A DNA stretch of 64,000 bases, taken from assembly GCA_963767415.1 (NCBI GenBank), contig CAVYEU010000095.1, positions 2,959 to 66,958 of the forward strand, written 5' to 3'. Source of the stretch: an uncultured Eubacteriales bacterium (GTDB lineage: Bacteria > Bacillota > Clostridia > Acetivibrionales > CAVYEU01). A program made the position numbers and the translations under genes. Positions 3,063 to 57,799 of this stretch are shown in pieces; within the stretch, counting starts at the first letter, position 1; every line of letters begins with the position of its first letter. The notes beneath the pieces are model-generated. The model saw only the letters and a list, made by a program, of their open reading frames with translations. It ran no database searches and was not told the DNA's origin.

Positions 3063-4115
3063 TTATTTTAATTCATTTAATTGCTTTACCAAGCTATATG
3101 GAATTATTTGATTTGGTATTGTGTCTTTATATGCTCTTTCCTTATGCATATAATCAATAATCTCCTTGGATTTATAATCCTTAAATTTTGTAGCAACTAC
3201 TTCAAGAACACTTAACTCATCCAAAGAAAAATCTGAAATATTAACTTCTTTATTTGATTGGATCCTATAGCTTATATCATCATAGATTAATTCTTCAACT
3301 ACTTTTATTGTTGGTAATGCAATTATTTCATCGTATGCAATTGGCAAAGCTCCAAACAGCATATGTTTATATATTAATCCTGTCATTGATTTACCATGTC
3401 TTCCAAAGAAGATAGAATCAGCATACCACAAAAGATTCATGAGTTTGACTTTATAGAGGTTATCAACAAATTGTGAAAAATAGCCCATAACATTTGCAAC
3501 CTTGTCAATGTTTAAAATCTTGTATCCATTAAGATCACTCTCTTCTTCAAAATTAACATATTGGCTACTAATCTCTTGCCTCTTTAAATAGAGATTTCCA
3601 ACCTCTTCAACCCTATTTGTAATATTTTTGCGAATTCTAGAATACTTTTCTTGAATAAATCTATTCTTATGCTTATCAATACACTCCAAAGCAAACATAG
3701 GATTTACACGAACCATTCTCATTAGATTATCATAAGTTTCATCTTGTATCGTTTTGCTCTCATACCTTGTAACTGTGACATCTCCCCAACCAAGTATTGC
3801 AGATAAATCACTTTGGGTTAATTGATAATAATCACGAATACCTGCAATTTCGTTAGAAGTTAATAATCCATTCTTTTGACGATAGAAATTCCTTGCTCGG
3901 AGCAAATTTTCATCCATCAAACTAGCTGGAACAAATTCATTCTCTTCTTCATCACTTAATGGACATAAAAAATAAATTTCTTCATAATCTACTGTTTCAT
4001 CTTTTACAATGGCTTGAGACAATCTTCTCCTTTGCTCTAATGAATGAGCTTTGTTACAAAAAGGGCAATCCATGGTAATCATGCTGATTAGATAATCATT
4101 ATTCATATTCATCAC
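3063..4115 (-). CDS. putative antitoxin: MqsA-like Zn-ribbon + XRE HTH N-terminus fused to a Panacea/DUF4065-like C-terminal domain
   Basis: N-terminus has CPFC...C and an XRE-type HTH (LTSNEIAGIRDYYQLTQSDLSAILGWGDVTVTRYESKT). C-terminal segment KVKLMNLLWYADSIFFGRHGKSMTGLIYKHMLFGALPIAYDEI resembles the DUF4065/Panacea core (KLQKLLYFAq...G.PL...Y.A...GPV). The gene sits 15 nt downstream of an MqsR-like ORF, and a GAGAGGAG RBS precedes its ATG. Confidence 0.5.
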   Translation of the reverse strand: MMNMNNDYLISMITMDCPFCNKAHSLEQRRRLSQAIVKDETVDYEEIYFLCPLSDEEENEFVPASLMDENLLRARNFYRQKNGLLTSNEIAGIRDYYQLTQSDLSAILGWGDVTVTRYESKTIQDETYDNLMRMVRVNPMFALECIDKHKNRFIQEKYSRIRKNITNRVEEVGNLYLKRQEISSQYVNFEEESDLNGYKILNIDKVANVMGYFSQFVDNLYKVKLMNLLWYADSIFFGRHGKSMTGLIYKHMLFGALPIAYDEIIALPTIKVVEELIYDDISYRIQSNKEVNISDFSLDELSVLEVVATKFKDYKSKEIIDYMHKERAYKDTIPNQIIPYSLVKQLNELK

Positions 4116-4130
4116 TCCTCTCTCACCAAT

Positions 4131-4544
4131 TTAGGTATATGGTCTTTGTGTAGTCAATAGATACCTTGCAAAATGGAACGAAACACAAAAAACTTTGCAG
4201 TTTTTTCTATCCCTTATCTTTGCTTTTATATATACCTCTCGATTTTTTATTGTTTTACCAAATGCAAAGAAGGTAGGTAAGCCATTATCTTTATTATCAA
4301 TAAAAGTTTCCATGTACTCTGAAATATCTAGTGATAAAAGTTGATTTTTAACATCATGCCTATCAAAATCAAGTGCCAGCATAGTATTAAAAGTTGTATA
4401 TGGATCAGTTGGTAATTCATTTTTCTTTTTAGGAAGTATATCCAAATCCCTCAAAATATCAAAATTCGGATTAATCAACACTTCCTTAAGCACTTTTAAA
4501 AATATTATTAAATCGCTTTCAGGTGAAATTATTTTCAAACTCAC
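4131..4544 (-). CDS. putative MqsR-family toxin (mRNA interferase-like)
   Basis: 137 aa. Its C-terminal half (LSLDISEYMETFIDNKDNG...FAFGKTIKNREVYIKAKI...VFCVSFHFA) aligns by eye with E. coli MqsR (GLSESDFYKSMTTYSDHT...DVYRPRLVTGQVYLKITV...VLIVSFKEK). Toxin-first gene order matches mqsRA. Confidence 0.45.
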   Translation of the reverse strand: MSLKIISPESDLIIFLKVLKEVLINPNFDILRDLDILPKKKNELPTDPYTTFNTMLALDFDRHDVKNQLLSLDISEYMETFIDNKDNGLPTFFAFGKTIKNREVYIKAKIRDRKNCKVFCVSFHFARYLLTTQRPYT

Positions 4545-8152: not shown

Positions 8153-8183
8153 AACAATATGATCTCCTCCAAGAATGAATTAG

Positions 8184-8257
8184 TCGAGGCGACATGATTT
8201 GAACATGCGACTTCTGCGTCCCGAACGCAGCGCTCTACCAAGCTGAGCCACGCCTCG
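8184..8257 (-). tRNA. tRNA-Pro (anticodon CGG)
   Basis: Reverse complement folds as a cloverleaf: 7-bp acceptor CGAGGCG/CGCCTCG, D-arm GCTCAGCTTGGTAGAGC, anticodon stem CTGCG/CGCAG with loop TTCGGGA, T-arm GTTCAAATC. CCA is not encoded. Confidence 0.85.
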
Positions 8258-8289
8258 CATAAATTTAAACCTCTAAATAGATTATATAC

Positions 8290-8331
8290 TGTACTGACGG
8301 TTACAAAATAACATTTTTGTAACCGTCAGTA
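8290..8331. terminator. 18-bp-stem hairpin between tRNA-Pro and the IS remnant
   Basis: GTACTGACGGTTACAAAA-loop-TTTTGTAACCGTCAGTAC, a perfect inverted repeat. Confidence 0.5.
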
Positions 8332-8480
8332 CATGTTAATACTTGCCTCATTAAAAAAATTATTACCTCAGCAAGTATATGTTTTTTTAATTATCATTAA
8401 TATTTTTTCATGCTTTATGATATAATATTTTAATCTCGTATGCAATTAAATTCTTTATGATCTTCTTTAACACTAAAAAA

Positions 8481-16740: not shown

Positions 16741-17409
16741 TTGAAAAAAGACATTATGTTTTTATTGATATTTATTTTTGGAATAAATATTTTAAGCGGA
16801 TGTAGTTTAATAGAAAGCGTCAGTCTCAAAAAGAATGCTGAAACCCAAGCTTTCCCTGTAAGCAGTACGGCTTTGAGTGAGAGTGAAGCTCAAAAGCGAA
16901 CTGACAAAGTTCCTATACATCTTTATTTCGCAAATGGAGATAATTCAAAGTTAAAGCTTGAAATCCGGTATATTCCTGTTGAGGAGGCGAAAAAAAGTGT
17001 AAACAATCTTGCTTCCATTGTATTAAAGGAATTAATAAAAGGACCCAAGCCAGGTGGCGGATTAAGATCAACAATACCTGTAGATACCAAACTGATTTCT
17101 TCAATCTCAATAGATGGGGGAATATCTTCTGTTAATCTTTCAAACGATTTTATAAAAAACCATGCAGGAGGTAAAGCCGAAGAAGAATTAACCTTATATT
17201 CAATTGTAAATTCATTAACAGAACTAAAAGAAATTCAAAAAGTAAAATTTTTTATCGAGGGCAAACAACAAAGAGACTTTAAAGGGAATTTTAAATTCAA
17301 TGCATTGTTCCCTAGAAATAGCTCTCTAATAAGTAAAGAAATCGAATCACTAAGTCCAAACGAAAGATCTACTGTAGGCACAAGCAAAACTGAAGATTAT
17401 CTTGAATAA
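16741..17409 (+). CDS. GerMN-domain lipoprotein (sporulation/germination GerM-like)
   Basis: Lipoprotein signal with lipobox (MKKDIMFLLIFIFGINILSGC from a TTG start, or MFLL.. from the ATG at 16756), then a GerMN-like domain (VPIHLYFANGD...KFFIEGKQQRDFKG). Confidence 0.65.
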   Translation: MKKDIMFLLIFIFGINILSGCSLIESVSLKKNAETQAFPVSSTALSESEAQKRTDKVPIHLYFANGDNSKLKLEIRYIPVEEAKKSVNNLASIVLKELIKGPKPGGGLRSTIPVDTKLISSISIDGGISSVNLSNDFIKNHAGGKAEEELTLYSIVNSLTELKEIQKVKFFIEGKQQRDFKGNFKFNALFPRNSSLISKEIESLSPNERSTVGTSKTEDYLE

Positions 17410-17496
17410 TAATATACTAAGGGGACGAAAATATTGACAATATCTTCGTCCCCTTAGTATATTATTATCGTCTTATTATTTCAACGGCTTCTTAAT

Positions 17497-18995: not shown

Positions 18996-20498
18996 TTGAA
19001 TGTGATTTTACAAGGAGGAATTTTTATAAAAAAGATACGAGCTTTCTTTTCGGATGCTATGTCTGACATCTTACAAACAAGTATTACAGATTATTACGAA
19101 AGAAGTCTCATTCCAGATTATTCATCAAAGTTCTGTACATCAAGTTTTTGGATTTCCAATATATCTCAAGCAAATAAAATCATATTAAATAAAAATAAAA
19201 TATTTAAATTAAATAAAATAAACACATCAAATTCGAATACTAATGTTGTTGATTTAACTATATTTGAACCTGAGATTTCAAAGACTATATTACTAGACCT
19301 CATACATAAATTTTCGATCCCATCGCAAGATAGATATATAAACGGAAAAAAAGTAGATCAAACATATTATAATAATCTAATTCAAAAAATGCACTTTTAT
19401 AGTCTAAATGAACCCATTAAGGTTCTTTTTGGGATTACTGTGAAAAGAACAGATATAAGATCTTTTCCAACTCAAGATAAAGGATTTGACTCTCCAGACG
19501 ATATTGAATTTGATTATTTTCAAGAATCAGCCTTAGAAATTGCTGAACCTTTAATAATATTACATGCAACAGATGATAAAGCCTGGTACTTTATTCGTTC
19601 TTCGAATTATCACGGATGGGTTCGTGCAAGTAATGTTGGAGTTTTTGACAACAAGAAAGACTGGTTAAATTATCTTAATCCCTCCCAATTTTTAATTATA
19701 ACCGCAAATAAACTAAAATTAGAAGTCAATCCCTATTCGAAAAAATTATCAGAACTCGAATTTGGAATGGGGGTAAAGCTACCATTAATTCTAGATTCCA
19801 ATACCGGGCAGATTATTGACAATCAAACAGCAACGTGTAGTTATACTTGCCGAGGTAATAATTTTTTAATGAGGCAAGTATTAACATGCACTAGCGGTTT
19901 CAAAAATGTTATTTTGAAACCTAGTGCAGTATATAAGGTAAAGATCCCAACACTAAGTGCTGATGGGAGGGTTGCATTAAATACTGTCCTAATACCCATA
20001 TCATCCGATGTATCTATCGGACACTTGGAGTATACTAGAGAAAATATTTTATCACAAGCATTTAAGTTATTAGGAGATAGATATGGTTGGGGTGGGATGT
20101 TCAGAAGCCGAGACTGTTCAGGTATAATTTTAGATATATTTAAGTGCTTTGGAATTATTTTACCAAGAAACACTTCTCAACAAGAATTATCAGCAGGTAA
20201 AACATATTTATTTGAAAATTTAGACGTTTTAGCCCGTAAAAAGATTTTAGACAAATTGTCTCCTGGAGCAGCATTATATATGAAAAATCACGTTGTACTA
20301 TTCCTTGGGAAATACGAAGACCGATACTATTGTATTCAAGCAATTTATGCATATGCTGATAAGCTCAAGCCAAATTCTGATGGGTCATTTGAAAAAATTA
20401 TTTTAAACAGTACAATTGTTACCACCCTTGATCTACCGCTAAAAAGGAATGGAAAGAGTATACTCGAAAATCTTATACTAGCCAAAATGTTTGAATAG
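18996..20498 (+). CDS. SH3-domain-containing NlpC/P60 (C40) peptidoglycan endopeptidase, YkfC-like
   Basis: C-terminal C40 catalytic region GDRYGWGGMFRSRDCSGIILDIFKCFGIILPRNTSQQ...NHVVLFLG with Cys/His. Start codon uncertain. The CDS holds one copy of a 95-bp repeated element at 19836-19932. Confidence 0.8.
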   Translation: MNVILQGGIFIKKIRAFFSDAMSDILQTSITDYYERSLIPDYSSKFCTSSFWISNISQANKIILNKNKIFKLNKINTSNSNTNVVDLTIFEPEISKTILLDLIHKFSIPSQDRYINGKKVDQTYYNNLIQKMHFYSLNEPIKVLFGITVKRTDIRSFPTQDKGFDSPDDIEFDYFQESALEIAEPLIILHATDDKAWYFIRSSNYHGWVRASNVGVFDNKKDWLNYLNPSQFLIITANKLKLEVNPYSKKLSELEFGMGVKLPLILDSNTGQIIDNQTATCSYTCRGNNFLMRQVLTCTSGFKNVILKPSAVYKVKIPTLSADGRVALNTVLIPISSDVSIGHLEYTRENILSQAFKLLGDRYGWGGMFRSRDCSGIILDIFKCFGIILPRNTSQQELSAGKTYLFENLDVLARKKILDKLSPGAALYMKNHVVLFLGKYEDRYYCIQAIYAYADKLKPNSDGSFEKIILNSTIVTTLDLPLKRNGKSILENLILAKMFE

Positions 20499-26185: not shown

Positions 26186-26920
26186 CTATTTTTTAAAATA
26201 CTCCTTAATTCCTTCAAAAATTGCAGTAGCTACTTTGTCCTGGTACTCTCTTGTTACAAGCAATTTCTCTTCATTTGGGTTAGATAAAAACCCGCATTCA
26301 ACGATTGAGATTATTGCCTTATTATTATTCAAAATGATTATCGGTTCCTTTTTTTCTAAAGCAGTTCGTTTATTATTTGGATCAACTGATCTTTTTATCG
26401 AATCTTGTAAACATAAAGCGAGCCTTTGACTTTGTGGTGAATTTGAGGGATAAAACGTTTGAGCTCCACTATATTTACCTTCAGGAAATTTATTTAAATG
26501 TATACTTACAACAATATCAGTTGCTTCATCGTCCATCATTTTTTTCCTTCTCAATAGATCTTGTTTCCTTTTTTGAACTATTCCCTTTGTTTCTGACTGG
26601 TATTCTAATCTATCTTCTTCTCTAGTCATTAAAACTTTATAATTTTCAGTAGTTAATAAATCCCTTAGTCTTTTTGCAATATACAAGTTTACATCTTTCT
26701 CTTTAAGTCCACTAAAGTCACTCACTGCTCCCGGATCTTCCCCTCCATGTCCAGGATCAATTAACACTATTTTGGATTTAATTTCGGTATTTGTAGTTAC
26801 TGCTGATGAAACATCATGAATAAACTCTATTCCATACAGAACTAAAGATAATAAGATGATAAGTAACGTAAATATAACTCTATTCTTCTTAAAAATTAAG
26901 ATCATACTCTCATACCTCAT
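26186..26920 (-). CDS. cwlD: N-acetylmuramoyl-L-alanine amidase, CwlD-like (germination-specific)
   Basis: Signal/TM, then Amidase_3 motifs (IVLIDPGHGGEDPGA...ADIVVSIHLN...IIVECGFLSNPNE). Confidence 0.8.
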   Translation of the reverse strand: MRYESMILIFKKNRVIFTLLIILLSLVLYGIEFIHDVSSAVTTNTEIKSKIVLIDPGHGGEDPGAVSDFSGLKEKDVNLYIAKRLRDLLTTENYKVLMTREEDRLEYQSETKGIVQKRKQDLLRRKKMMDDEATDIVVSIHLNKFPEGKYSGAQTFYPSNSPQSQRLALCLQDSIKRSVDPNNKRTALEKKEPIIILNNNKAIISIVECGFLSNPNEEKLLVTREYQDKVATAIFEGIKEYFKK

Positions 26921-26993: not shown

Positions 26994-27133
26994 GCAAAGC
27001 AATAGAGAGGCAAGACAAGACAAGGGAGGTGGAGTGACAGGGGACGGTTCTTTGACACACATGCATGTGTGTCAAAGAACCGTCCCCTGTCACTCCACCT
27101 CCCTTGTCTTGTCTTGCCTCTCTATTGCTTTGC
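26994..27133. repeat. perfect 140-bp palindrome (70-bp arms), GC-rich
   Basis: GCAAAGCAATAGAGAGGCAAGACAAGACAAGGGAGGTGGAGTGACAGGGGACGGTTCTTTGACACACATGCAT and its exact reverse complement, centred at 27063/27064; verified base by base. It overlaps the last codons of capD. Confidence 0.9.
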
Positions 27134-28957
27134 GCAAGTATAACTTGGAACAATAAGACTTATATACTCCATTGCCTGGTCGGAATTTGTCATAATTTTT
27201 TCTTTAAGTTCTTCTATTTCATGTCTTAAAAGCCCTAAATCTGTAAGTATTGGTTTTGCAACAAATATCTTATTATTCTTTGTTTTCCCTAAATCCTCTC
27301 CTTCAATCACTAATTCTTCATATAGCTTCTCTCCTGGTCTAAGTCCAGTAAACTGTATTTCAATATCATCCGTCTTAAATCCCGAGAGCCTAATCAAATT
27401 TTTCGCCAAATCATATATTTTAACTGGCTCGCCCATATCAAGTACAAAGATTTCTCCTCCTTTTGCCATTGCACCAGCTTGTACAACAAGTTGGACAGCC
27501 TCACATATAGTCATAAAAAATCTAGTTATATCTGGATGAGTTACTGTTACAGGACCACCATACTCAATCTGTTTTTTAAATAAGGGAATTACGCTTCCGC
27601 TACTTCCTAGAACATTGCCGAATCGGACCGCAACAAATTCGGTCTTGCTATGCCTATTTAGTGCTTGTATTATCATTTCTGCTACTCTTTTTGTAGCTCC
27701 CATGATATTGGTTGGATTAACAGCTTTGTCAGTTGATACTAAGACAAACTTTTTTACCCCATATTTATCAGAACACTCTGCTAAATTTTGTGTACCAAAG
27801 ACATTATTTCTTATAGCCTCTGTAGGGTTTAATTCCATTAATGGCACATGCTTATGCGCTGCAGCATGAAATACTACATCAGGATTCAATCTTTCAAATA
27901 TATCGTCAATCCTATGCTTTTCTCTAATATTAGCTATTTTCGCATCCAATTTCAAGTTTGGATACTTGCACAACAACTCGTTTTGTATTTCAAATACATT
28001 GTTCTCATTATTATCCAGAATGATTAGTTGCTTTGGGTTAAATGATGCTATTTGTCTACAAAGCTCAGAACCTATAGAGCCACCACCACCAGTCACCATT
28101 ACGACTTGATCTCTCAAATATGATGATATCTCATCAATATCTAAATCCACAGGCTCACGTAACAGGAGATCTTCAATGTCGACATCTCTTATTTTTTGTA
28201 TAACAACCGATTCGTCTATCAATTCTGACATAGACGGAAGAATCTTGACCTTGCAATACGTTTTTGAACATTCACTATAAATCTCATTTATATCCCGGTT
28301 GCTAGCTTTTGGCAATGCGATTATAACTTCACTTATCTTTAGATCTTCAATAACATGCAGTATATCATTACTGGTGCCAACAATTGGCACTCCATTTATT
28401 AGTTTTCCAACCTTGTATTTGTCATCATCAATGATCGCGATAGGTTTACTCATAAGCTCGTGATGCGCTTTTAATTCTTTAATTATTGCAGCTCCTGCAT
28501 CACTTCCTCCAATTATAAGTATCCTTTTATAATTACCAAAAGACCCTATCTGCTTAAGTCTAATTCTTCTAAACACTCTATAAGCAAATCTTACTCCTCC
28601 CACTAAAAAGATATCTACTAAAAAGGCTATTATAAATATACTTCTTGGTATATAAATTCTAGAAATGAAAATATAACTAATAACAATAGCATTACTAACA
28701 AAAGACACCAAAACTATTGTTACCAGTTCAAATATCCCTGCATATTGCCATAGACTGTTGTATAGTTTGAACGCTAAGAAACAAATTATTTTTATAACAG
28801 TTGCAATCAATAGTATTTCAAAAAATGAATTATGGAATTCCTCAGGGATACTCCAAAATGAGAAATCAAACCTTATTAAATATGATATACAAATTGAAAT
28901 ATTAATAAGCAGAATATCTAATAATATCAATAACTTTGTTCTTATCTTATGTCTCAA
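27122..28957 (-). CDS. membrane-anchored polysaccharide biosynthesis protein CapD/PglF-like (NDP-sugar 4,6-dehydratase)
   Basis: 611 aa; N-terminal TM helices; two Rossmann regions (ILIIGGSDAG.., VMVTGGGGSIGSEL); CapD-like length and layout. Confidence 0.85.
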   Translation of the reverse strand: MRHKIRTKLLILLDILLINISICISYLIRFDFSFWSIPEEFHNSFFEILLIATVIKIICFLAFKLYNSLWQYAGIFELVTIVLVSFVSNAIVISYIFISRIYIPRSIFIIAFLVDIFLVGGVRFAYRVFRRIRLKQIGSFGNYKRILIIGGSDAGAAIIKELKAHHELMSKPIAIIDDDKYKVGKLINGVPIVGTSNDILHVIEDLKISEVIIALPKASNRDINEIYSECSKTYCKVKILPSMSELIDESVVIQKIRDVDIEDLLLREPVDLDIDEISSYLRDQVVMVTGGGGSIGSELCRQIASFNPKQLIILDNNENNVFEIQNELLCKYPNLKLDAKIANIREKHRIDDIFERLNPDVVFHAAAHKHVPLMELNPTEAIRNNVFGTQNLAECSDKYGVKKFVLVSTDKAVNPTNIMGATKRVAEMIIQALNRHSKTEFVAVRFGNVLGSSGSVIPLFKKQIEYGGPVTVTHPDITRFFMTICEAVQLVVQAGAMAKGGEIFVLDMGEPVKIYDLAKNLIRLSGFKTDDIEIQFTGLRPGEKLYEELVIEGEDLGKTKNNKIFVAKPILTDLGLLRHEIEELKEKIMTNSDQAMEYISLIVPSYTCAKQ

Positions 28958-33099: not shown

Positions 33100-33545
33100 T
33101 ATTATACAACAACTTCATAAATATCTTTATTAATACACTTCTTCCACCCACTTATGTATTCTTTATTCTTATTAAAATTAAATAAGATCAAATACCCTGT
33201 ATCTTTTCGTTTGCTATACTTGCCGAGGTAATAATTTTTTTAATGAAGCAAGTATTAACATGCACTAACGGTTTCAAAAATGTTATTTTGAAACCTAGTT
33301 CAGTATATCAATATACTTCGCCAATTGTTCTAGTGCATTTTTCTCACAATTTTCTCCGTGCCATATCTTAAGCTCAATAATATGTTCTTCTCCACTATAA
33401 GTTATTATTATATCCATTCTGTTATCCATGCGTGTTTCTGGTTCAACATAATAAAATCCAGTTCCGTTAATAATCGGCTTAAAAAAACTATAGCCTTTAG
33501 CGTGGCAGCCCTCGTGCTTTTGCTCTGAAGTGTTAAATCACCCCT
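33100..33545 (-). pseudogene. degenerate remnant of a PD-(D/E)XK_9 (DUF1703-like) nuclease-domain gene, interrupted by a 95-bp repeat copy
   Basis: Minus-strand fragments translate as ...GFYYVEPETRMDNRMDIIITYSGEEHIIELKIWHGENCEKNALEQLAKYI... and ...RKDTGYLILFNFNKNKEYISGWKK... with no start and several stops. The 95-bp element sits at 33213-33309. Confidence 0.4.
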
Positions 33546-33586
33546 CTTGACAAAAAATACGTAAAATGTTATTTTATAATTAGAAA

Positions 33587-33613
33587 TTAGCACTCAATAT
33601 TGATGAGTGCTAA
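33587..33613 (+). promoter_or_regulatory. CIRCE operator (HrcA binding site) of the dnaK operon
   Basis: TTAGCACTC-N9-GAGTGCTAA, a perfect match to the CIRCE consensus, just downstream of TTGACA at 33547-33552. Confidence 0.9.
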
Positions 33614-33636
33614 CAATAAAAAGTGAGGTGAGGATT

Positions 33637-40794: not shown

Positions 40795-41202
40795 ATGAAG
40801 ATCGATAGCAGGGATGCTCAAACGATGCCTTTACATCAGGCGCAAGAAACATTCAAATCAAAAGTCGATTTAAACAAAATTGAAAGGCTTGATTCAAAAA
40901 AAGTGAATATACAAAAAGACGTCGGGAAAAAAAATATTTCTCAAATAACAACTCAAGATAAAAATGAATTAACAATAGCAGATAAAACGATGCTTGAAGC
41001 AATATTAAAAGCCAATCGGGCACTTGAAGGCTCAAATAGAAAATTGGAGTATTCTGTGCATAAACCAACAAAGGAGGTTGTTGTGAAAGTAATAAATACC
41101 GATACTAATGAAGTGGTACGAGAAATACCTTCAGAAAAGATTTTGGACATGGTTGCGAAAATGTGGGAAAAGGCCGGACTTTTAATAGATGAAAGAAGGT
41201 GA
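40795..41202 (+). CDS. flaG: flagellar protein FlaG
   Basis: 135 aa; C-terminal region YSVHKPTKEVVVKVINTDTNEVVREIPSEKILDMVAKM is typical of FlaG; directly upstream of fliD. Confidence 0.7.
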   Translation: MKIDSRDAQTMPLHQAQETFKSKVDLNKIERLDSKKVNIQKDVGKKNISQITTQDKNELTIADKTMLEAILKANRALEGSNRKLEYSVHKPTKEVVVKVINTDTNEVVREIPSEKILDMVAKMWEKAGLLIDERR

Positions 41203-41208
41203 TTTTAG

Positions 41209-43746
41209 ATGTCTGCAGCTTCGGTAAGTACTACTGGTGATAGTGTGATTAGCGGCACTTATTCGAAAAAATTTAGAATCGGTGGCATGGGCAGTGGCAT
41301 GGATACGGATGCAATTGTAAAACAGTTAATGCAGGCTGAAAGTATACCATTAGACAAATTAAAACAAAAACTGCAACTCAATAAATGGAAGCAGGATGAT
41401 TACAGAGGTATAACCAGTTTACTACAAGGAGTGCAAAATACTTACTTTAATTCTTTAAACCCTGCAACTAATATGCTATCTCAATCAAGCTATATAGAAT
41501 ATACTTCTACAAGCACCGATCCATCAACTGTTACGATAACTGGAAGCTCTTATGCTGTTCCAGGGAGTCATACTATCCAAATAAATAATCTTGCAACGGC
41601 TGCGACAGATTCAAGTACAGCAACAATTACAAAGAATATTGTTGCGTCATCAAGTGCAAACTTTGCAAATGCTGTAAATCAAAACTTATACTTAGATCTC
41701 GACGGGGTACGGAAGCTAATAACAATTGATTCTAGTGTAATAGACATCCCTTCTTTTCAAACTGCAATAGATAATGCAGTTGGATATAATAAAGTTGTTG
41801 TTAGTGATGCGGGTGGTGGGATATTACAGTTTAATACAGTAAGTGGAAGTAATGTTAATAAAATTATCCTTTCGTCGGGAACTAATGATGCATTAATGAC
41901 AAATTTAGGATTTTCAGGTACTGATAATTTAAGTAATAGACTAAACACATTTAATTCTCTTGAAACTATAGCAAATAAAATGAGTAATCCCTTTTCATTT
42001 GATTCTAATGGGAATGTTGCTTTAAGCATAAATAATACAAATTTTACGTTTAACCAAGGTACGACATTAGTAAGTATGATTAATCAAATTAACAGTAGTA
42101 ATACAGCAGGTGTAGTACTTCAATATGATGATATTAATGATAAGTTTAATTTTATTTCAAAACAAATGGGAACAGGTATAAACATTCAATTAATTGAAAC
42201 TGGAAGTAATTTTTTACAGGGCGCAAATTTTAGTAATATTCAAGGTTTGGGTGTTGCTGATACTAAAGGATATTCCGGTGAAAGTTTTAGAGTAATAATT
42301 GATGGAGTTCAACAAAATATTCAGCTTATTTCGGGGGATTATGTTGATGCCGATGACCTTGTCACAGATTTGCAGACCAAAATTCAGAATGCATTTACTA
42401 ATAATACTGTTAATGTAAGTCAAACTAATGGCATAATAAATATTTCACTAGCGACTGGTGGTGGAAGCAATATAAGTATTGGAAATCCGATATCAGGAAC
42501 TTCTGCACTTTCAAAGTTGAAGCTCAGTGCAAATTATACAGCAGGAAAAGATGCATCGGTTGTTTTAGATGGGCAAACACTGGTTAGGAGTACAAATTCT
42601 TTTACTACAAGTGGAATAACATATAATTTACTTAAAGAAGGTCAGCCTTCTCAGACTGTTACTTTGACCCAGGATGTTGATTCGGTTTATAATAATATTA
42701 AAAGCTTTATTGATCAATATAATAGTATGATAGATACAATAAATAAAAAAATATCTGAAGATTACCACAGAGATTATCAGCCTCTTACAGATGCTCAAAG
42801 GGCAAGCATGAATCAGGAAGATGTAAAAAAATGGGAAGAAAAAGCTAATGAAGGATTACTTAGAAATGATCAACTATTATCAAATATAGTTACGAGTGTG
42901 AGAAATGCTATGTATGATCCAATATCAGGGTATAATGGCAATATATCAAATATCGGAATAACAACAGGGGCATATCAAGATAAAGGAAAACTAAATATAG
43001 ATGAACATAAGCTAAAGCGAGCTATTGAGAATGATCCTGATGGAGTAATGAATTTATTTGTAAAACAATCAGAGGATTATCCATACTATTTAAATTATTA
43101 TTCTGTTACTGGGATATCAACTGCACAGAATGCGCTAACTGACTATACTGCTTCTAATAAAAGCTTTAATGTAACTATAGATGGTAATGCTCAAATAATA
43201 ACATTGAATGGCAGTTATTCTACATATAGTGATCTCACTTCAGCTCTTCAAACTAAGATTCAAAGTGCATTTTCTAATACTCCAATATCAGTCACAGCTG
43301 ATTCTGAAGGGTTTTTAACTATTTCTTTAAGTACGACAGGAAGTGATATTAGTTTATCCGATCCTACAAGTGGGGCAAGTGCGTTGTCCGATTTAGGATT
43401 TCCTTCGTTATCAACCAGCGGAAGAATTGCAAGATATAATGAAGAAGGATTAGCATATAGGTTATCTGATATAATTAATGATGCGGTAAGAACTTCAAGA
43501 GACCGTGATGGTAATAAAGGCACATTAATTGAAAAAGCAGGTTTGGTAGGAGATGCAAGTGAAACTACAAACATATTTTATAAAATTATGTCGCATGAGA
43601 CACGAGATATATCAGAAATGAAAAAAAAATTAACAGCTAAAGAAGATTCGTATTATAAAAAATTTACAAATATGGAAGAAGTAATTTCTCGGATGAGTGC
43701 TCAGAGTAATTGGATTGCTCAACAACTTGGTGGAGGAACACATTAA
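41209..43746 (+). CDS. fliD: flagellar filament capping protein FliD (hook-associated protein 2), unusually long with a triplicated internal module
   Basis: N-terminal FliD motif (GMGSGMDTDAIVKQLMQAESIPLDKLKQK...WKQDDYRGI) and a FliD_C-like end. Three ~75-aa paralogous modules (...LQT(A/K)IQ.AF(T/S)N...IS(L/S)..G(S/G)(N/D)IS...SG.SALS.LGF) sit at roughly aa 160-235, 363-440 and 655-730. Confidence 0.85.
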   Translation: MSAASVSTTGDSVISGTYSKKFRIGGMGSGMDTDAIVKQLMQAESIPLDKLKQKLQLNKWKQDDYRGITSLLQGVQNTYFNSLNPATNMLSQSSYIEYTSTSTDPSTVTITGSSYAVPGSHTIQINNLATAATDSSTATITKNIVASSSANFANAVNQNLYLDLDGVRKLITIDSSVIDIPSFQTAIDNAVGYNKVVVSDAGGGILQFNTVSGSNVNKIILSSGTNDALMTNLGFSGTDNLSNRLNTFNSLETIANKMSNPFSFDSNGNVALSINNTNFTFNQGTTLVSMINQINSSNTAGVVLQYDDINDKFNFISKQMGTGINIQLIETGSNFLQGANFSNIQGLGVADTKGYSGESFRVIIDGVQQNIQLISGDYVDADDLVTDLQTKIQNAFTNNTVNVSQTNGIINISLATGGGSNISIGNPISGTSALSKLKLSANYTAGKDASVVLDGQTLVRSTNSFTTSGITYNLLKEGQPSQTVTLTQDVDSVYNNIKSFIDQYNSMIDTINKKISEDYHRDYQPLTDAQRASMNQEDVKKWEEKANEGLLRNDQLLSNIVTSVRNAMYDPISGYNGNISNIGITTGAYQDKGKLNIDEHKLKRAIENDPDGVMNLFVKQSEDYPYYLNYYSVTGISTAQNALTDYTASNKSFNVTIDGNAQIITLNGSYSTYSDLTSALQTKIQSAFSNTPISVTADSEGFLTISLSTTGSDISLSDPTSGASALSDLGFPSLSTSGRIARYNEEGLAYRLSDIINDAVRTSRDRDGNKGTLIEKAGLVGDASETTNIFYKIMSHETRDISEMKKKLTAKEDSYYKKFTNMEEVISRMSAQSNWIAQQLGGGTH

Positions 43747-43782
43747 TAGTAACCCAAAAAGAGCTAAGAAGGAGGGGGTTAA

Positions 43783-44211
43783 ATGGTTTCGCATAATGCA
43801 TATTTCCAATACCAAGAAAATATCATAAATACATCCCGCTCTGAAGAGCTGGTGCTTATGCTGTATAATGGACTTGTTAAGTTTATTATGCAGGCACAAA
43901 AACATTTAGAGGAAAAAGATATTCAAAGTGCACATGAAAAGATTCTAAAAGCACAAAATATTGTAAAGCATCTTAAGGATACATTAGATATGAAGTATGA
44001 AGTTTCAATAAATCTAGATTTAATGTATGAATATATGTATAATAGGTTGATAAAGGCTAATATTAAAAAAGATAAAAAGATATTAGACGAAATGCTTGGA
44101 TTTGCTAAAGAGTTTAGAGATACTTGGTCAAATGCTATGAAATTAGCAAGGATGAAACAAAGTCTTAACCAGAATATCCAACGTGAGCCCAGACTGGAGA
44201 TAAATAGGTGA
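43783..44211 (+). CDS. fliS: flagellar export chaperone FliS
   Basis: GGAGGGGG RBS; FliS-like four-helix pattern (LVLMLYNGLVKFIMQAQ...LMYEYMYNRLIKANIKKD...EFRDTW). Confidence 0.85.
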   Translation: MVSHNAYFQYQENIINTSRSEELVLMLYNGLVKFIMQAQKHLEEKDIQSAHEKILKAQNIVKHLKDTLDMKYEVSINLDLMYEYMYNRLIKANIKKDKKILDEMLGFAKEFRDTWSNAMKLARMKQSLNQNIQREPRLEINR

Positions 44212-44702
44212 ATAACGAATATAATCAAATATTTAAAAAATTGCTTAATATATCAAATGAAAAATATATCAACCTAAAAAAGATATATGAACAAACAGTT
44301 GATCAAAAACATTGTTTTGAAACAGAAAATATCAGTACTCTGCAAAAGATAATTAATAGTAAACAAGAAGCAATTCGCATTATTAATAGTCTTGACAATG
44401 ATTTTGAAACCGATTTTATACTACTTAAGCAGAAACTAGGAATTAGAAATATGAGCGATATAAAAGATACAAGTATACTTCAAATTAAAGAAGTAAAAGA
44501 ACTAAGAACTGTGATTAGCAATATTTTTAAATTATTAAATGAAATAAGTATAATTGAATCACAAATCGGTATTGCGGCAAAACAATTACTAAAAAATATA
44601 GGAAATCAAATAAAAATCATAAATCAAAGTAAAAAACTAATTTCATCTTACAATCCTTTTGCGAATAACACAAGCTCATATTATATAGACAAGAAAAAAT
44701 AA
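44208..44702 (+). CDS. hypothetical flagellar-cluster protein (FliT/FlgN-like chaperone candidate)
   Basis: 164 aa, helical, K/N/I-rich. GTG start overlaps the fliS stop. Called by position (fliD-fliS-fliT order in Bacillus) only. Confidence 0.35.
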   Translation: MNNEYNQIFKKLLNISNEKYINLKKIYEQTVDQKHCFETENISTLQKIINSKQEAIRIINSLDNDFETDFILLKQKLGIRNMSDIKDTSILQIKEVKELRTVISNIFKLLNEISIIESQIGIAAKQLLKNIGNQIKIINQSKKLISSYNPFANNTSSYYIDKKK

Positions 44703-44731
44703 AATTTATAAAAGAACTCATAAAAAAGAGC

Positions 44732-44758
44732 TAAACTAATTTTCTTAAAAACCGATAT
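44732..44758 (+). promoter_or_regulatory. sigma-D-type promoter upstream of the second fliS paralog
   Basis: TAAA-N16-CCGATAT. Confidence 0.5.
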
Positions 44759-44794
44759 TATATATAAGTAAACGAATGAATGGAGGCGCCTATA

Positions 44795-45214
44795 ATGTTT
44801 GAAGACAATACTTTTTTAAATCAAGAAAATATTTCACAAGAAGCTAACAAGGATGAAAAAACTGTGTTGACAGTAAGTCAGGAAGAAATTGTATCGTTTC
44901 TTTATCAAGGATTAGTTGAGTTTATATCAGAAGCTCGTGATAAAATGATTAAGGAAGAATTTGAAGAATCCAGAGAAAAGATTACAAAATCACAGAATAT
45001 AGTTGAAGAACTATATAACACACTTGATATGAACTATGAAATATCTAGCCAAATGGCAGTACTCTATGAATTCATTTACCTAAGACTAAACGTTGCTTCC
45101 GTCGAAAATAAAGTGGATGCGCTAGAAGAGGTTTTAGACTTAGCAATAGAGTTTCGCGACACTTGGTTAGAAGCTGTTGAGCTTATAAAGAAACAGTTTG
45201 CAGTAGTTTCTTAG
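44795..45214 (+). CDS. second FliS-family flagellar export chaperone paralog
   Basis: IVSFLYQGLVEFISEARD...MAVLYEFIYLRLNVASVENK...EFRDTWLEAV is the same architecture as fliS. ATG at 44795 follows a GGAGG RBS. Confidence 0.75.
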   Translation: MFEDNTFLNQENISQEANKDEKTVLTVSQEEIVSFLYQGLVEFISEARDKMIKEEFEESREKITKSQNIVEELYNTLDMNYEISSQMAVLYEFIYLRLNVASVENKVDALEEVLDLAIEFRDTWLEAVELIKKQFAVVS

Positions 45215-52861: not shown

Positions 52862-53633
52862 TTATATTCTGTCGATTACACTTTTAGAAATACCAATGAT
52901 CCTTGATAATTGACGTATTGATATGCCTTCAATTAATTTTAGTTTACAGATATATTCATTTCGCATTTGAATGTTCATATTATGTAATTCATTTACGTTC
53001 TCAAGACCAATTTGTACTATGATTTCTAGAACATCATTGTCATCTAGCCTTTTGGGGTCATAATAATCTAAACATTGATCTTTATTACTTTCATTATTAA
53101 ATTTTATAAATAATTCAATAGCCTTTTTATGGTCAGATGAATACAATAGCAAAGCAACTTTGGTATTTACCATATCAAAGTTTTCTATATATTCATTGTA
53201 ACTACTCCATTTATAATCTTGAATATTGCGTGTAATATTTGCTTTGACTGGGTTTTGATGAATATATCTTAAAACCCGTCAAGAAATATGAATCATCTAA
53301 TACTACTTCACTTTTAAATCTTTCTTGAAATAAGTGCCCACATCTTCCATACTTTTTATTGTACCAAAAAACATAGCTACTACTAATTCTTTTTATTATA
53401 TTAGATATGGACTCGTTGCTTTCTTTTAAAAGTAAATGGATATGGTTGCTCATCAAACAATAACTATAAATTTCATATTTACAAATTTCCTTATACCTTA
53501 CAACAGTTTCAAGAAACCTCTGTTTGTCTTCATCGTCTTCAAAAATTATTTGTTTGTTTATTCCACGCATAATAACATGAAATATACCACTATCACTTTC
53601 TATACGACTATGTCTAGACATACAAGCCTCCAT
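52862..53633 (-). pseudogene. Y1 HUH transposase (IS200/IS605 TnpA / REP-associated tyrosine transposase-like) with C-terminal HTH, disrupted by a +1 frameshift in a G-run
   Basis: N-terminal part carries the HuH motif (CLMSNHIHLLL) and YGRCGHLFQERFKSEVV. Removing one G from GGG (plus-strand CCC at about 53280) restores ...DDSYFLTVLRYIHQNPVKANITRNIQDYKWSSYNEY..., which continues in frame into ORF 52862..53173 with an HTH (ISIRQLSRIIGISKSVIDRI). A subterminal hairpin TACGGAGCATAGCTCCGTA sits at 52812-52832. Confidence 0.65.
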
Positions 53634-53717
53634 TTTGTTTATTTTAATTCAATTATTGATAAAAATAATGTTTCTGTAATAAAAGTACCTTTTTTAAATT
53701 TTATCATAACTTCAAAA

Positions 53718-53748
53718 GAGGGACAAGGTACCTGTCCCCTTGTCCCTC
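53718..53748. repeat. REP-like GC-rich palindromic element, copy 1
   Basis: GAGGGACAAGGTACCTGTCCCCTTGTCCCTC; nested palindromes GGGACAAGG/CCTTGTCCC and GGACA..TGTCC. Confidence 0.8.
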
Positions 53749-53768
53749 CAATATAATTAGGAGCATTA

Positions 53769-54743
53769 TCAATCCTTTTCTCTTAATTCCAGTATTTCGG
53801 CTTCAGATATATTTAATATATTTATAATTTCATCTATAGATCTACCTAAGTTTATTAACTTTTTTGCGATTTCATATACCGTTTGTTTTTTCCCTTCTTC
53901 TATACCAAACCTCTTTCCTTCTTCTATACCAAACTTCTTTCCTTCTTCTATACCAAGCTTCTTTCCTTCTTCTATACCAGACTTCTTTCCTTCTTCTATA
54001 CCATCTTTTTTCCCAACTACATAAGTAGACTCATGCATACTTGCCTGATAATGCATATTTTCTATATAACGTTTATAATCAAGTAAATCTTCTTTAGGTA
54101 GCTTCATTTTATTTAATTTCTCTCGTGCCTCGCTTAGCCCTTTTGCACTAAATTCTTCCTTTATCTCTTCATTTTTCAAAAAATAGATCCATTCATCTAA
54201 CGAATCTTTTGCTATATCGTTAAACCTGTTTACCTTTATAAGATAATATTCTGGATATATTTGATAAACAAAATCTTTTGAGTATAACTCTTGCTGTCTT
54301 GCATTTAATTCCAATTCATCATCAAAGTGCAATCCTTTGAATTTTGTTGTACCATGATATACATAATCAAGTCCATGCCCTAGGTCAAAAAATACTACAC
54401 TTATTGAGTATATTTTTTTTACACTTGAATAGGGATCGCTTTCCCTCATGTACTCTGTTATTGACTTGGAAACTCCAAATAGAATCCTTGATAAAAAATC
54501 AAATTCGTTATCTACTTGAATTTCTACAATTATTAACTCCTTGTCTTCGTTTTCTACCATTATATCAACTCTATTGTATTTATCGTCCTTATCTTCTTTA
54601 TTACTTTCACTCTCTATTATATTCACAATTTTTAGATTTTGACGTAATACAACACTTAAGAACCCTTCCAGAACCCCAAAATTCGCTTTACTTCTTAATA
54701 GTTTTTTTATTGCCCAGTCAAACCGTACCAGCTCTCTCTCCAT
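53769..54743 (-). CDS. Rpn/YhgA-like PD-(D/E)XK nuclease-family putative transposase (TIGR01784-like), paralog 1
   Basis: N-terminal PD-(D/E)XK core (RVDIMVEN..ELIIVEIQ) and a C-terminal G(I)EEGKK decapeptide repeat encoded by 30-bp tandem DNA repeats (53880-54010). Confidence 0.65.
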   Translation of the reverse strand: MERELVRFDWAIKKLLRSKANFGVLEGFLSVVLRQNLKIVNIIESESNKEDKDDKYNRVDIMVENEDKELIIVEIQVDNEFDFLSRILFGVSKSITEYMRESDPYSSVKKIYSISVVFFDLGHGLDYVYHGTTKFKGLHFDDELELNARQQELYSKDFVYQIYPEYYLIKVNRFNDIAKDSLDEWIYFLKNEEIKEEFSAKGLSEAREKLNKMKLPKEDLLDYKRYIENMHYQASMHESTYVVGKKDGIEEGKKSGIEEGKKLGIEEGKKFGIEEGKRFGIEEGKKQTVYEIAKKLINLGRSIDEIINILNISEAEILELREKD

Positions 54744-55003
54744 GACCTCTCTCCTACATTTATATTTTATTTAGTATTATATTTAAGTAAGTATAATTGC
54801 TATCTGATAGTATTATACTATAATTATTTTAAGATACGTTATAGTTATTTTTTTTTAATTGTTTTTTCTCAAACTCGTCCAGCCTAATTCAGTCTCTAAT
54901 ATGGTTTATGTACCTACAATTGCTTATCAATAGTAAAAACGCACCCCTTTGTTCTCCTTATTTTTTTTCAATTGCTGGGACAAAAGTGGGAGCAGGGGAA
55001 AAA

Positions 55004-55034
55004 GAGGGACAAGGTACCTGTCCCCTTGTCCCTC
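55004..55034. repeat. REP-like palindromic element, copy 2
   Basis: Identical GAGGGACAAGGTACCTGTCCCCTTGTCCCTC. Confidence 0.8.
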
Positions 55035-55256
55035 TCCACTGATGAAATAGGTAAAAGCCTAAGCAATTTTATACTATTGAAAAACATAGTGATGACATTG
55101 TTTTTAAAGTTGCTGATAAAAGAAATAAAACACTCAAAAGTCTCGATAAATTCAAACTACTAAAACACTTTGAAGCATCTAGAAAGTGGAATAAAAAGAA
55201 TAGTTAAATCAACCGCAACTGATAAAAATAGCCCATACTGTGGCATTCATTTCAAG

Positions 55257-55281
55257 AGAGGGACAGGTACCTTGTCCCTTC
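55257..55281. repeat. REP-like palindromic element, degenerate copy 3
   Basis: GAGAGGGACAGGTACCTTGTCCCTT; one base missing relative to the full element. Confidence 0.6.
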
Positions 55282-55293
55282 CTTCTGTCATTT

Positions 55294-56316: not shown

Positions 56317-56437
56317 TGTTATTTTATCAACCCAATCTTTTGTCTATTTATTTTGATTATATTTCTTTTGATTTAAAAAAACAATACTAATTGGTAAATA
56401 TGGGCATATTCTACCTTTATAGTGTTATTGATAGAAT

Positions 56438-56467
56438 TTAAGGGAAAGGGACAAGGAACCTGTCCCC
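56438..56467. repeat. REP-like palindromic element, copy 4 (one mismatch)
   Basis: GGGACAAGGAACCTGTCCCCTTGTCCCTCC. Confidence 0.75.
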
Positions 56468-57744: not shown

Positions 57745-57799
57745 TCTAAATAGTAACAAGAAAAAGAAACAAAGAAAAAACAGCTGACAAAGCCTCTGT

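Follow-up and report, generated by a model that had tools for sequence, protein, structure and literature searches.

A TA-flanked, hairpin-forming repeat, probably a MITE, lies in frame in an NlpC/P60 endopeptidase gene of an uncultured Clostridia bacterium

An NlpC/P60 endopeptidase gene in the window (the whole stretch of 64,000 nucleotides that was analysed) contains, in frame, a segment that recurs elsewhere in the same DNA. This raises the questions of what kind of element the segment is, how it entered the gene and why the gene tolerates it. The window holds at least three copies of one hairpin-forming repeat of ~90 bp, two on the plus strand (A, B) and one on the minus strand (C). A reading of the sequence alone (the sequence-only reading) had described A and B as the two copies. 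Both are real, but they are not the only ones, as copy C was missing from that count.

8285..8379, minus strand: copy C, consisting of TA (8379-78), a 91-bp element (8377-8287) and TA (8286-85)
19842..19933, plus strand: copy A, consisting of TA (19842-43), an 88-bp element (19844-19931, TACTTGCC...GTGCAGTA) and TA (19932-33)
33215..33307, plus strand: copy B, consisting of TA, an 89-bp element (33217-33305, with a T7 run) and TA

Across the three copies the element measures 88-91 bp, with a G+C content of 28-31%, and it has no coding capacity (frames of at most 31 codons). Its ends read TAC...GTA with a TA on either side in all three copies, which describes the borders better than the TATA flanks proposed earlier. 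Copies A (19842-19934) and B (33215-33308) differ by three substitutions and one T indel over 94 columns. The resulting identity of ~95-96% agrees with the ~95% given in the sequence-only reading, and identity among the three window copies is 93-96%. The 93-mer was matched in 0 of 100 shuffled windows. The longest stretch common to copy C and A/B is 27 nt, with no shared 31-mer. A T-run at 19862-19867 is T6 in copy A and T7 in B and C.

The gene that carries copy A is the following.

18996..20498, plus strand: 500-aa ORF encoding an SH3b + NlpC/P60 protein (SH3_6 + NLPC_P60)

Its product belongs to the YkfC/3M1U-like gamma-D-glutamyl-L-diamino acid endopeptidases. The ORF is intact and retains the conserved catalytic residues Cys374 and His432; in the database the gene (P0001, 498 aa) is called from a start 6 nt further downstream. 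Copy A, which encodes residues ~284-313 (TCRGNNFLMRQVLTCTSGFKNVILKPSAVY) in frame, is an insertion into this gene. Opposite the insert a 30-residue gap is found in all 18 NlpC/P60 homologues compared, which is the outcome that the sequence-only reading expected from such an alignment, and the alignments with PDB entries 3M1U and 6SQX break at the same place. Removal of 90 bp (element plus one TA) yields a 429-aa alignment with the homologue P0005 that is gap-free at the site, where the junction Tyr aligns with a conserved Tyr. The in-frame location claimed earlier thus stands, but the addition is 90 bp or 30 codons and not ~96 bp or 32 codons. Pfam matches of the host protein did not change when the insert was excised in silico, with no SH3_7 match either way, so this restoration test is neutral. 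In the AF2 model of the host protein, which is confident overall (pLDDT 85, pTM 0.84), pLDDT falls below 50 in no internal segment other than the insert (281-309), which is modelled as a loop between strands; the low value is in part forced by the gapped alignment.

A segment that is open in the host frame of an intact ORF could also be a genuine protein part, i.e. a coding module or gene fragment copied between loci, and the sequence-only reading had offered a gene-fragment transposition as its alternative. However, the segment is missing from all the homologues just mentioned, and among 1.84 billion representative proteins the 30-residue peptide occurs only in the window's own protein. It is also predicted to be disordered. 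Copy A is open in one of three forward and one of three reverse frames, copy B is open only in a frame other than that of the host and copy C is closed by stops in all frames, while two of the three copies are intergenic. With stops in the corresponding frames of B and C, and no homologue of the peptide, a gene-fragment transposition is unsupported, and we consider this explanation highly improbable.

The T-run decides if the insertion adds a multiple of three nucleotides. Copy A would have landed at a TA within a Tyr codon of the cell-wall endopeptidase gene. With T6 it adds exactly 90 bp and its frame is open, so that the gene survives with an additional loop of 30 residues, which may sit between two strands of the second SH3b-like domain. 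The modified enzyme presumably still works. The T7 copies would add 91 bp, making in-frame tolerance impossible. A homopolymer error could mimic such preservation of the frame, or the repeat could have been collapsed or wrongly inserted in the contig. The contig is indeed metagenome-assembled, and short-read graphs are interrupted at each copy: in the independent k=31 Logan assemblies of two runs, breaks fall within A, B and C alike. Yet Logan contigs from these two runs join unique flank to element on both sides of A, both sides of B and one side of C. One of them (L006) reaches 19868 from the unique flank and confirms the left junction of A and its T6, another (L005) starts at 19907 and confirms the right junction, and a contig from the second sample (L007) confirms the left junction of copy B and its T7. 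A second assembly supporting T6 differs by one SNP. Moreover, the two halves of the NlpC/P60 gene lie on either side of copy A, in collinearity with the homologues. It is hard to believe that an assembly artefact would give these results.

Copy B splits a gene remnant on the minus strand into two pieces.

33101..33214, minus strand: C-terminal piece of a PD-(D/E)XK remnant, ending in ...SKRKDTGYLILFNFNKNKEYISGWKKCINKDIYEVVV and the stop
33308..33495, minus strand: upstream piece of the PD-(D/E)XK remnant, ending in ...IIELKIWHGENCEKNALEQLAKYI; the gene was already truncated at its 5' end

When 91 bp is cut out at copy B, a continuous minus-strand ORF with restored frame results. Its residues 21-81 match PDDEXK_3 weakly (E = 2.7e-4), and the junction at ~63 falls within this match. 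The interrupted ORF matched nothing. Copy B is an insertion as well, and the earlier statement that it interrupts a PD-(D/E)XK remnant is confirmed, with the remnant being a minus-strand ORF of weak similarity. The element probably landed here in a gene that was already dying. Copy B is intergenic; the hrcA promoter and CIRCE operator are separate from it and follow ~240 bp downstream. Copy C, too, is intergenic. Its end lies 28 nt before tRNA-Pro(CGG) (8183-8257, minus strand), and it would have landed in the leader region of this tRNA gene.

The element is multi-copy in the genome. Copy C has no 31-mer in common with A or B, yet the k=31 assemblies break there, which implies more C-type copies. 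P0058, a spurious ORF on another contig of the same assembly, reads through a full copy abutting a partial copy. Its peptide '...ITSASI-YCTR...' back-translates to GGCAAGTA-TA-TACTGCAC, i.e. two termini with exactly one TA between them. A word-indexed protein search with the element peptides from both strands returned P0058 alone; the same search missed P0001, so this route is not exhaustive. Copy C, P0058 and the assembly breaks at all three window copies provide the further copies that the sequence-only reading had proposed to look for. Searches of other collections gave chance matches at most. The pattern GCAAGTATTAACATGN7GGTT had two such matches in the genome contig collection (Acidobacteriota, Ignavibacteriaceae), with no similarity beyond the pattern. 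Two different cores had 0 matches in the metagenome contig collection, the viral contig collection gave 0 matches, the phage collection held no match to the element, and in the plasmid collection nothing but 26-mers of E. coli vgrG matched, by chance (E = 0.8). No solo element ends are present in the window.

Every copy folds into two separate hairpins, which in copy A are positioned as follows.

19843..19881, plus strand: hairpin 1, in which ATACTTGCC (19843-19851) pairs with GGCAAGTAT (19873-19881) around an A/T-rich 21-nt loop
19888..19927, plus strand: hairpin 2, GCACTA(GC)GGTTTCAAAA / ATGTTA loop / TTTTGAAACC TAGTGC

Hairpin 1 has 9 pairs; 8 of them are invariant in A, B and C, and the one at the top varies between C-G, C·A and U-G. 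The stem of hairpin 2 in copy A consists of 16 pairs with a 2-nt bulge. The fold of copy A has an MFE of -32.9 kcal/mol (z = -7.0 against shuffles) and that of copy B scores z = -4.0, so the two internal inverted repeats noticed earlier are real and fold far better than shuffled sequences. In copy C hairpin 2 is a perfect 18-bp stem, reached through three double-sided changes and a GT insertion, and in copy B two substitutions break stem pairs. These compensatory changes hint at a role of the hairpin as such or at the action of quasi-palindrome correction. With three sequences only, the covariation was reached by 52 of 500 shuffles and is not statistically secure.

Hairpins could be conserved for a function at the RNA level instead of for mobility. 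The repeat would then be a duplicated, host-selected structured RNA or regulatory module, such as an sRNA, a leader or processing signal, an attenuator or an outward promoter. The stable folds and compensatory changes would be in agreement with this, and all three copies are co-oriented with the gene that contains them or lies downstream (NlpC/P60, hrcA, tRNA-Pro). A TTGAAA near the right end combines with the flank at copy B to a promoter-like TTGAAA-18-TATACT. A precedent exists in the Bacillus cereus group, where the repeat bcr1 is transcribed and has two stem-loops with compensatory changes (PMC3184786). However, the chance probability of co-orientation in 3/3 copies is ~1/8, and the promoter-like sites are no commoner than in shuffles; promoter and terminator scans at copies B and C gave nothing above shuffles, and a terminator-like tail is missing. 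With Rfam 15 at the gathering score the window matches tRNA-Pro only, and permissive scans of copies A and C (E <= 10) gave chance matches only (E >= 1). The contexts have nothing in common, one copy being in a CDS and another in a dead gene, and the stem-breaking changes in copy B are as neutral decay would give. A regulatory RNA module is in our view distinctly unlikely. Readings as attC site, CRISPR repeat or terminator were rejected, as an array, R'/R'' core sites and a T-tail are all missing.

The ends of the element bear on how it could move. Counting the TA, the terminal inverted repeat (TIR) has a perfect 6-bp core, TATACT/AGTATA, with an imperfect extension to ~15 nt (gapped matches 13/16 in A and 14/17 in C). 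Shuffles reached the TIR score in 45/2000 and 11/2000 trials, and for copy B in 340/2000, which is not significant. The repeat lies within the range of the generic MITE definition (~4-30 bp), at its short end only. Each terminus is embedded in its own hairpin. A second mode of mobility that should be considered is that of a hairpin-dependent ssDNA element, i.e. an IS200/IS605-derived PATE or a REP/RAYT-type repeat. Here both subterminal hairpins, folded as ssDNA, would be recognised by a Y1 (HUH) tyrosine transposase; insertion would take place on the 3' side of a short target that ends in TA and would cause no true target duplication. The weak TIR and the stable hairpins that contain both termini would suit such a route. 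The three double-sided compensatory changes in hairpin 2 of copy C, with two newly made pairs, point the same way: a dsDNA TIR-binding transposase would not require them, which counts against a conventional MITE. Abutting copies that share one TA fit both routes equally. The window also contains a RAYT-like Y1 gene (52862-53633, minus strand; PF01797 E = 1.2e-13, NF047646 E = 3.6e-9), but this gene carries a frameshift, and neither hairpin of the element is similar to its flanks.

The left and right hairpins of IS200/IS605 elements are alike, and a REP doublet is made up of one REP in two inverted copies. In contrast, hairpin 1 (9 bp, 21-22-nt loop) and hairpin 2 (16-18 bp, 6-nt loop) of the present element have no sequence in common and differ in stem length and loop. 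The termini are symmetric (TA-TAC...GTA-TA), and beyond the TA there is no conserved 4-5-nt target 5' of the left end (...TAGT, ...TTGC, ...AACA). Given also the insecure covariation, mobilisation as folded ssDNA appears unlikely. We are similarly doubtful about the wider idea of a two-hairpin mobile module in which the hairpins would be the functional units, either for mobilisation by a Y1/HUH enzyme with TA as cleavage context or for a role at the RNA level. If this were true, the in-frame copy would be an early exaptation, providing a new surface loop on the substrate-binding SH3b domain of a peptidoglycan endopeptidase.

In view of the above, the element is best explained as a non-autonomous, TA-flanked MITE of 88-91 bp, the family of which has so far been seen only in this uncultured Clostridia genome; we put the probability of this reading at nearly four in five. 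It is smaller than 500 bp and has no transposase coding capacity, occurs in several dispersed copies and is AT-rich with a stable stem-loop, as in the generic MITE definition; AT-richness, lack of coding capacity and stable hairpins are listed MITE features (PMC10969869; PMC2229807 Table 1). The MITE would insert at TA and leave a TA on each side. Removing the element with one TA restores a collinear protein alignment at A and a continuous ORF at B, which would agree with a duplication of the TA as opposed to TA termini, although a real empty site was not seen at the DNA level and a duplicated TA is then indistinguishable from a terminal-TA element inserted beside a TA. Flanking TAs as in RUP/IS630-Spn1 and other Tc1/mariner/IS630-derived MITEs point to a transposase that is plausibly of the IS630 type. 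By this analogy, the element could be mobilised in trans by a DDE transposase of the IS630 type whose gene lies elsewhere in the genome; the 64-kb window itself encodes no DDE or IS630 transposase. As partners we also considered the Rpn-type PDDEXK_2 'transposase' genes at 53.7-57.5 kb; they were dismissed because they do not share the element ends and their hairpins are G+C-rich terminators. The suggestion in the sequence-only reading of a MITE that can sit in frame agrees with every test run. Neither of the two observations that it named as refuting was made: the homologues lack the segment, and further genomic copies exist.

The resemblance to Correia, RUP and BOX elements that was noted earlier is one of kind, not of sequence. 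RUP of Streptococcus pneumoniae is an IS630-Spn1-associated MITE of 107 bp, AT-rich, with 9-bp TIRs and 5'-TA-3' termini (PMC2229807, PMC3049150, PMC10969869). Like the present element it is a non-autonomous AT-rich repeat of Bacillota of ~100 bp with short TIRs and TA at its ends that inserts at TA and disrupts genes and pseudogenes, and its copies insert beside or into one another (PMC2229807, PMC3049150, PMC10969869). However, the TIRs of RUP pair together to one long stem (PMC3049150), whereas here there is one hairpin per end, and RUP, which was compared by description and not by sequence, has a known partner IS. The two-hairpin form is closest to bcr1, again by description. This mobile interspersed repeat, also from Bacillota, is predicted to be 'cruciform-like with two independent stem loops', with compensatory changes and flanking direct repeats (PMC3184786). 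It differs in its length of ~155 bp, its 5-bp direct repeats instead of TA and its known transcription, and in-frame insertion is not a feature of bcr1.

For the in-frame behaviour of copy A the best analogues are the Rickettsia palindromic elements (RPEs). These repeats of 105-150 bp occur in frame in unrelated genes that are still functional, and the added peptide segment was judged compatible with the protein fold (Ogata et al. 2000, 2002, via PMC10969869, PMC2229807). Only this behaviour is shared. RPEs are longer, specific to Rickettsia and encode a conserved peptide in many genes, and TA termini are not general among them, whereas the host here belongs to the Clostridia and one in-frame case is known, which depends on a variant that is 1 nt shorter. 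The 107-bp form of Correia/NEMIS and ERIC/IRU also have TIRs, as well as TA termini and a TA target duplication, which the present element may share; they have open reading frames and occur fused into host ORFs (PMC2229807). In contrast to the present element they are proteobacterial, and a single stem is formed by their TIRs, which are long (24 bp in Correia). Their IHF or RNase III/E-related functions are not evident here.

The phenomenon is well known; what is new is this example and its family, not the kind of element. It would represent a previously undescribed MITE family in a deep-branching lineage of uncultured Clostridia, where such elements have barely been catalogued. It also provides a clear case, from outside Rickettsia, of a conserved enzyme gene that tolerates a small mobile repeat in frame, with a plain rule for tolerance: only the variant that is 1 nt shorter (T6, +90 bp) preserves the frame. 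There are practical consequences as well. Masking of the element is advisable for annotators of this lineage. It breaks short-read assemblies at every copy, causes a misleading 'unique' protein segment and yields spurious ORFs such as P0058 and the 42-44-aa ORFs at copy B.

The left end and the core of hairpin 2, used as queries with two to three mismatches allowed, found exactly three copies of the element in the window and no solo element ends.

19842-19934, plus strand: copy A, aligned with copy B over 94 columns
33215-33308, plus strand: copy B, aligned with copy A over 94 columns
8285-8379, minus strand: copy C, found by a window-wide repeat search

Pairwise alignment of A and B shows three substitutions and one T indel across the 94 columns, and the likeness has sharp limits, TATAC (left) and GTATAT (right). 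The 93-mer had no match in 100 shuffles of the window and is thus without chance expectation. The sequence-only reading had the element present twice; both of these copies stand, but the count overlooked copy C, which is 92-93% identical to A and B. Copy C ends 28 nt upstream of tRNA-Pro(CGG) (8183-8257, minus strand), the sole tRNA in the window. Copy C and its flank together form a perfect TATAAT (8286-8281) where they meet, some 24 nt upstream of the 5' end of mature tRNA-Pro, and the sole nearby -35-like hexamer is TTGTAA in hairpin 2 of copy C, 14 nt from TATAAT; a promoter scan found no canonical promoter on the minus strand of this region (8281-8310).

All copies read TA-TACTTGC...CAGTA-TA, with an element proper of 88 bp (A), 89 bp (B) or 91 bp (C) and a G+C content of 28-31%. 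The terminal inverted repeat (TIR) is short, with a perfect core TATACT/AGTATA. With gaps it reaches 13/16 in A and 14/17 in C, values attained by 45 and 11 of 2000 shuffles, respectively; the extended TIR of copy B is not significant against shuffles. The two internal inverted repeats noticed earlier both exist and fold much better than shuffled controls: the single strand of copy A reaches -32.9 kcal/mol (z = -7.0) and that of copy B -21.8 kcal/mol (z = -4.0), each forming two separate hairpins, and the reverse strands fold similarly. In hairpin 1, ATACTTGCC pairs with GGCAAGTAT around an A/T-rich loop that holds a run of six T in A (T6) and seven in B and C (T7). A pair count on the three-copy alignment found its pairs invariant, the top pair excepted. 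Hairpin 2, GCACTA(GC)GGTTTCAAAA-ATGTTA-TTTTGAAACCTAGTGC, carries three double-sided changes in C relative to A and B (C-G to U-A, A-U to G-C, U-A to A-U), and a GT insertion in C pairs the two bulged bases to give a perfect 18-bp stem; in B it has two stem-breaking substitutions. The covariation is suggestive and not significant, being equalled by 52 of 500 shuffles with three sequences. Template-switch correction of a quasi-palindrome could, we infer, also be the source of the compensatory changes, without selection.

Copy A lies within an intact reading frame.

18996-20498: host ORF of copy A, 500 aa, SH3_6 and NLPC_P60 domains

The closest solved relative of the host protein is 3M1U, a putative gamma-D-glutamyl-L-diamino acid endopeptidase, and a search of 5.8 billion proteins gave best homologues with only some 40% identity to it. 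All 18 aligned NlpC/P60 homologues show a clean gap of 30 columns that coincides exactly with TCRGNNFLMRQVLTCTSGFKNVILKPSAVY, and PDB alignments are interrupted at the insert; Cys374 and His432, catalytic and invariant in the 18-homologue alignment, are retained. In-silico excision of 19844-19933 (88 bp plus one TA, 90 bp) leaves 470 aa that align with P0005, a database homologue, over 429 residues and gap-free at the site (...DNQTATCSYKVKIPT versus ...DNQSTYGNYAVKVPV), the junction codon TAT, which spans the retained TA, aligning to a conserved Tyr. A confident AlphaFold2 model from the homologue alignment (pLDDT 85, pTM 0.84) shows residues 281-309 as an unstructured loop that links two strands within the second SH3b-like domain; no other internal stretch falls below pLDDT 50, and the gapped alignment partly imposes the low value of the loop. 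Copy A is by these comparisons an insertion, into what appears to be a live NlpC/P60 gene. The homologue alignment proposed in the sequence-only reading thus marks the segment as an insertion; it is in frame, as had been read, but adds 90 bp and 30 codons, not about 96 bp or 32 codons.

Copy A is open in one of three forward frames, that of the host, and in one of three reverse frames; copy C has stops in every frame. The addition amounts to 90 bp because of the T6 run; T7 copies would add 91 bp (B) and 93 bp (C). The in-frame copy therefore either descends from T6 subfamily members or lost one T once it had inserted. T6 is no single-assembly artefact: L006, an independent Logan contig from run ERR11523654, runs from host-gene sequence into the element across T6 and the A that follows, with one SNP relative to the window at 19833, and the right junction is covered by L005. 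These independent junction reads exclude an assembly artefact.

Among 1.84 billion representative proteins, a profile of the element peptide matched none but that of the window itself. Transposition of a gene fragment or coding module, first offered as an alternative, is refuted by this peptide without relatives, the homologue gap and the frames of B and C.

Excision of 33217-33305 plus one TA (91 bp) in silico at copy B fuses two minus-strand ORF pieces (...IIELKIWHGENCEKNALEQLAKYID joined to SKRKDTGYLILFNFNK...EVVV and a stop). Pfam gives the rejoined 100-aa ORF a weak match to PDDEXK_3 at residues 21-81 (E = 2.7e-4, short of the Pfam cut-off), a stretch that includes the junction near residue 63; the 44-aa ORF as interrupted gave no match in the same Pfam comparison. 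Copy B, too, is an insertion, and the rejoined frame agrees with the initial view that it interrupts a PD-(D/E)XK pseudogene; the gene was already truncated upstream and is therefore a remnant. The promoter-like site and CIRCE operator of hrcA (33547-33614) are intact and lie about 240 bp downstream of copy B.

33547-33575: promoter-like site TTGACA-17-TATTTT, preceding CIRCE
33586-33614: canonical CIRCE operator, TTAGCACTC-N9-GAGTGCTAA, overlapping the hrcA start region

This is ordinary heat-shock regulon architecture and is unaffected by copy B.

A protein-database search with the open-frame element peptides of both strands found one further ORF.

P0058: 99-aa ORF on a different contig of 37,889 bp (37.9 kb), same sources as the window

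It contains the reverse-frame peptide of one full B-type copy; YCTRSQNHIF, with which a second copy, diverged or partial, begins, comes directly after it. Back-translated, the joint reads GGCAAGTA-TA-TACTGCAC, two termini with exactly one TA between them, as would be expected for insertion at another element's flanking TA. Being almost all reverse-strand element, P0058 is a spurious ORF and shows that the repeat yields false gene calls. Independent Logan k=31 assemblies (ERR11523654, ERR11523659) end inside all three window copies.

Copy A: L006 ends at 19868, L005 starts at 19907
Copy B: L003 starts at 33280, L007 ends at 33255
Copy C: L004 ends at 8328

Copy C has no 31-mer in common with A, B or the rest of the window (longest shared stretch 27 nt), and the break of L004 therefore indicates further C-type copies in that sample. 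Copy C, P0058 and the breaks in all three copies answer the earlier question of further genomic copies. A one-genome-per-species collection gave two chance matches and no relative of the element; JGI metagenomes, queried with two different cores, IMG/VR and phages gave no match, and plasmids chance matches only. The window's DnaK is at most about 85% identical to any other protein, the best named matches being uncultured Clostridia, Acetivibrionales and Anaerobacterium. The host is thus an unsampled Clostridia lineage (32% G+C), which explains why neither empty sites nor related copies were retrieved.

The element fits prokaryotic MITEs as defined in PMC10969869 (section 2.1) and PMC2229807 (Table 1): it is small and AT-rich, has short TIRs, stable stem-loops and TA on either flank, and is present in several dispersed copies. 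Its sites, one in a gene, one in a pseudogene and one in an intergenic leader, match as well, and so does the clustering of copies side by side. A MITE is thereby supported, as a new family of a known kind. Of the proposed Correia/RUP/BOX-like MITE, the class survives on size, TA, TIR and copies; the likeness to RUP, Correia or BOX is one of kind and not of sequence, short of established membership in any of them. Correia, ERIC and RUP are among the TA-flanked MITEs, and IS630-Spn1 is indicated as the mobiliser of RUP by TA target and TIR similarity (PMC2229807, PMC3049150). With this precedent, the TA flanks, the one clue within the element, suggest that an IS630-type DDE transposase, from a gene beyond the window, would move it in trans; among the substantial ORFs of the window, Pfam scans found no DDE transposase. 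Copy A shares its in-frame tolerance with RPEs, the 107-bp Correia form, ERIC and QMITE1 (PMC10969869, PMC2229807, PMC5896051), and the two independent hairpins with compensatory changes resemble bcr1 of the Bacillus cereus group, also Bacillota (PMC3184786). The T6/T7 frame logic and the paired hairpins with apparent covariation are the least ordinary aspects.

A hairpin-dependent Y1/HUH element, PATE or REP-like, would find a possible enzyme in the window.

52862-53633, minus strand: IS200-like Y1 / RAYT-like tyrosine transposase gene (PF01797, E = 1.2e-13; NF047646, E = 3.6e-9, below cut-off)

We consider this unlikely, since the Y1 gene appears frameshifted (near 53270) with flanks unlike the element, the element's two hairpins are dissimilar to each other, its ends are symmetric, and its left end has no conserved preceding target except TA. 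Still less probable is a host-selected RNA module: Rfam has no family for the element even at E <= 10, there is no terminator tail, promoter-like sites are not in excess, and the contexts of the three copies have nothing in common.

Several other features were observed in the window. The conserved RYIHQNPVKA...WSSY part of the Y1 protein and its C-terminal HTH-like tail run on in another frame (ORF 52862-53173), and no REP-like repeats flank the gene. Next to it is an Rpn-family cluster.

53717-57746: PDDEXK_2 / TIGR01784 'recombination-promoting nuclease/putative transposase' cluster
53769-54743, 55294-56316 and 56600-57454, all minus strand: three Rpn-family genes

Two of these genes duplicate each other almost exactly (300 bp at 100% identity) and contain 24-bp tandem repeats (53863-54014, 56598-56725). 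The cluster has four copies of a G+C-rich hairpin, GGGACAAGG...CCTTGTCCC; a T-run follows the one at 53717, which therefore looks like a terminator. A near-perfect palindrome at 17406-17468 (31-nt arms, 97% complementary, 1-nt spacer), between convergent genes, is probably a bidirectional terminator; L006 ends exactly within it, at 17437. A perfect 140-bp palindrome (26994-27133; 70-nt arms, no spacer, 100% complementary), G+C-richer than its surroundings, separates the two genes below; it may be real or may have arisen by fold-back during assembly.

26186-26920, minus strand: N-acetylmuramoyl-L-alanine amidase
27122-28957, minus strand: Polysacc_synt_2 gene, with its last codons in the right arm

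A SocA/Panacea antitoxin-domain gene (3063-4115, minus strand) lies directly downstream of a 137-aa ORF (4131-4544, minus strand) with no Pfam match, and the two may form a PanA-type toxin-antitoxin pair. Four consecutive minus-strand ORFs at 58123-63748 (688, 227, 139 and 768 aa), all unmatched in Pfam at E <= 1e-5, are some 13 kb away from the flagellar cluster at 40795-45214 (FlaG, FliD, two FliS, FlgN). The window repeat search found many degenerate GTTGCTGATACTG-like repeats in these ORFs, which may encode repetitive surface proteins.
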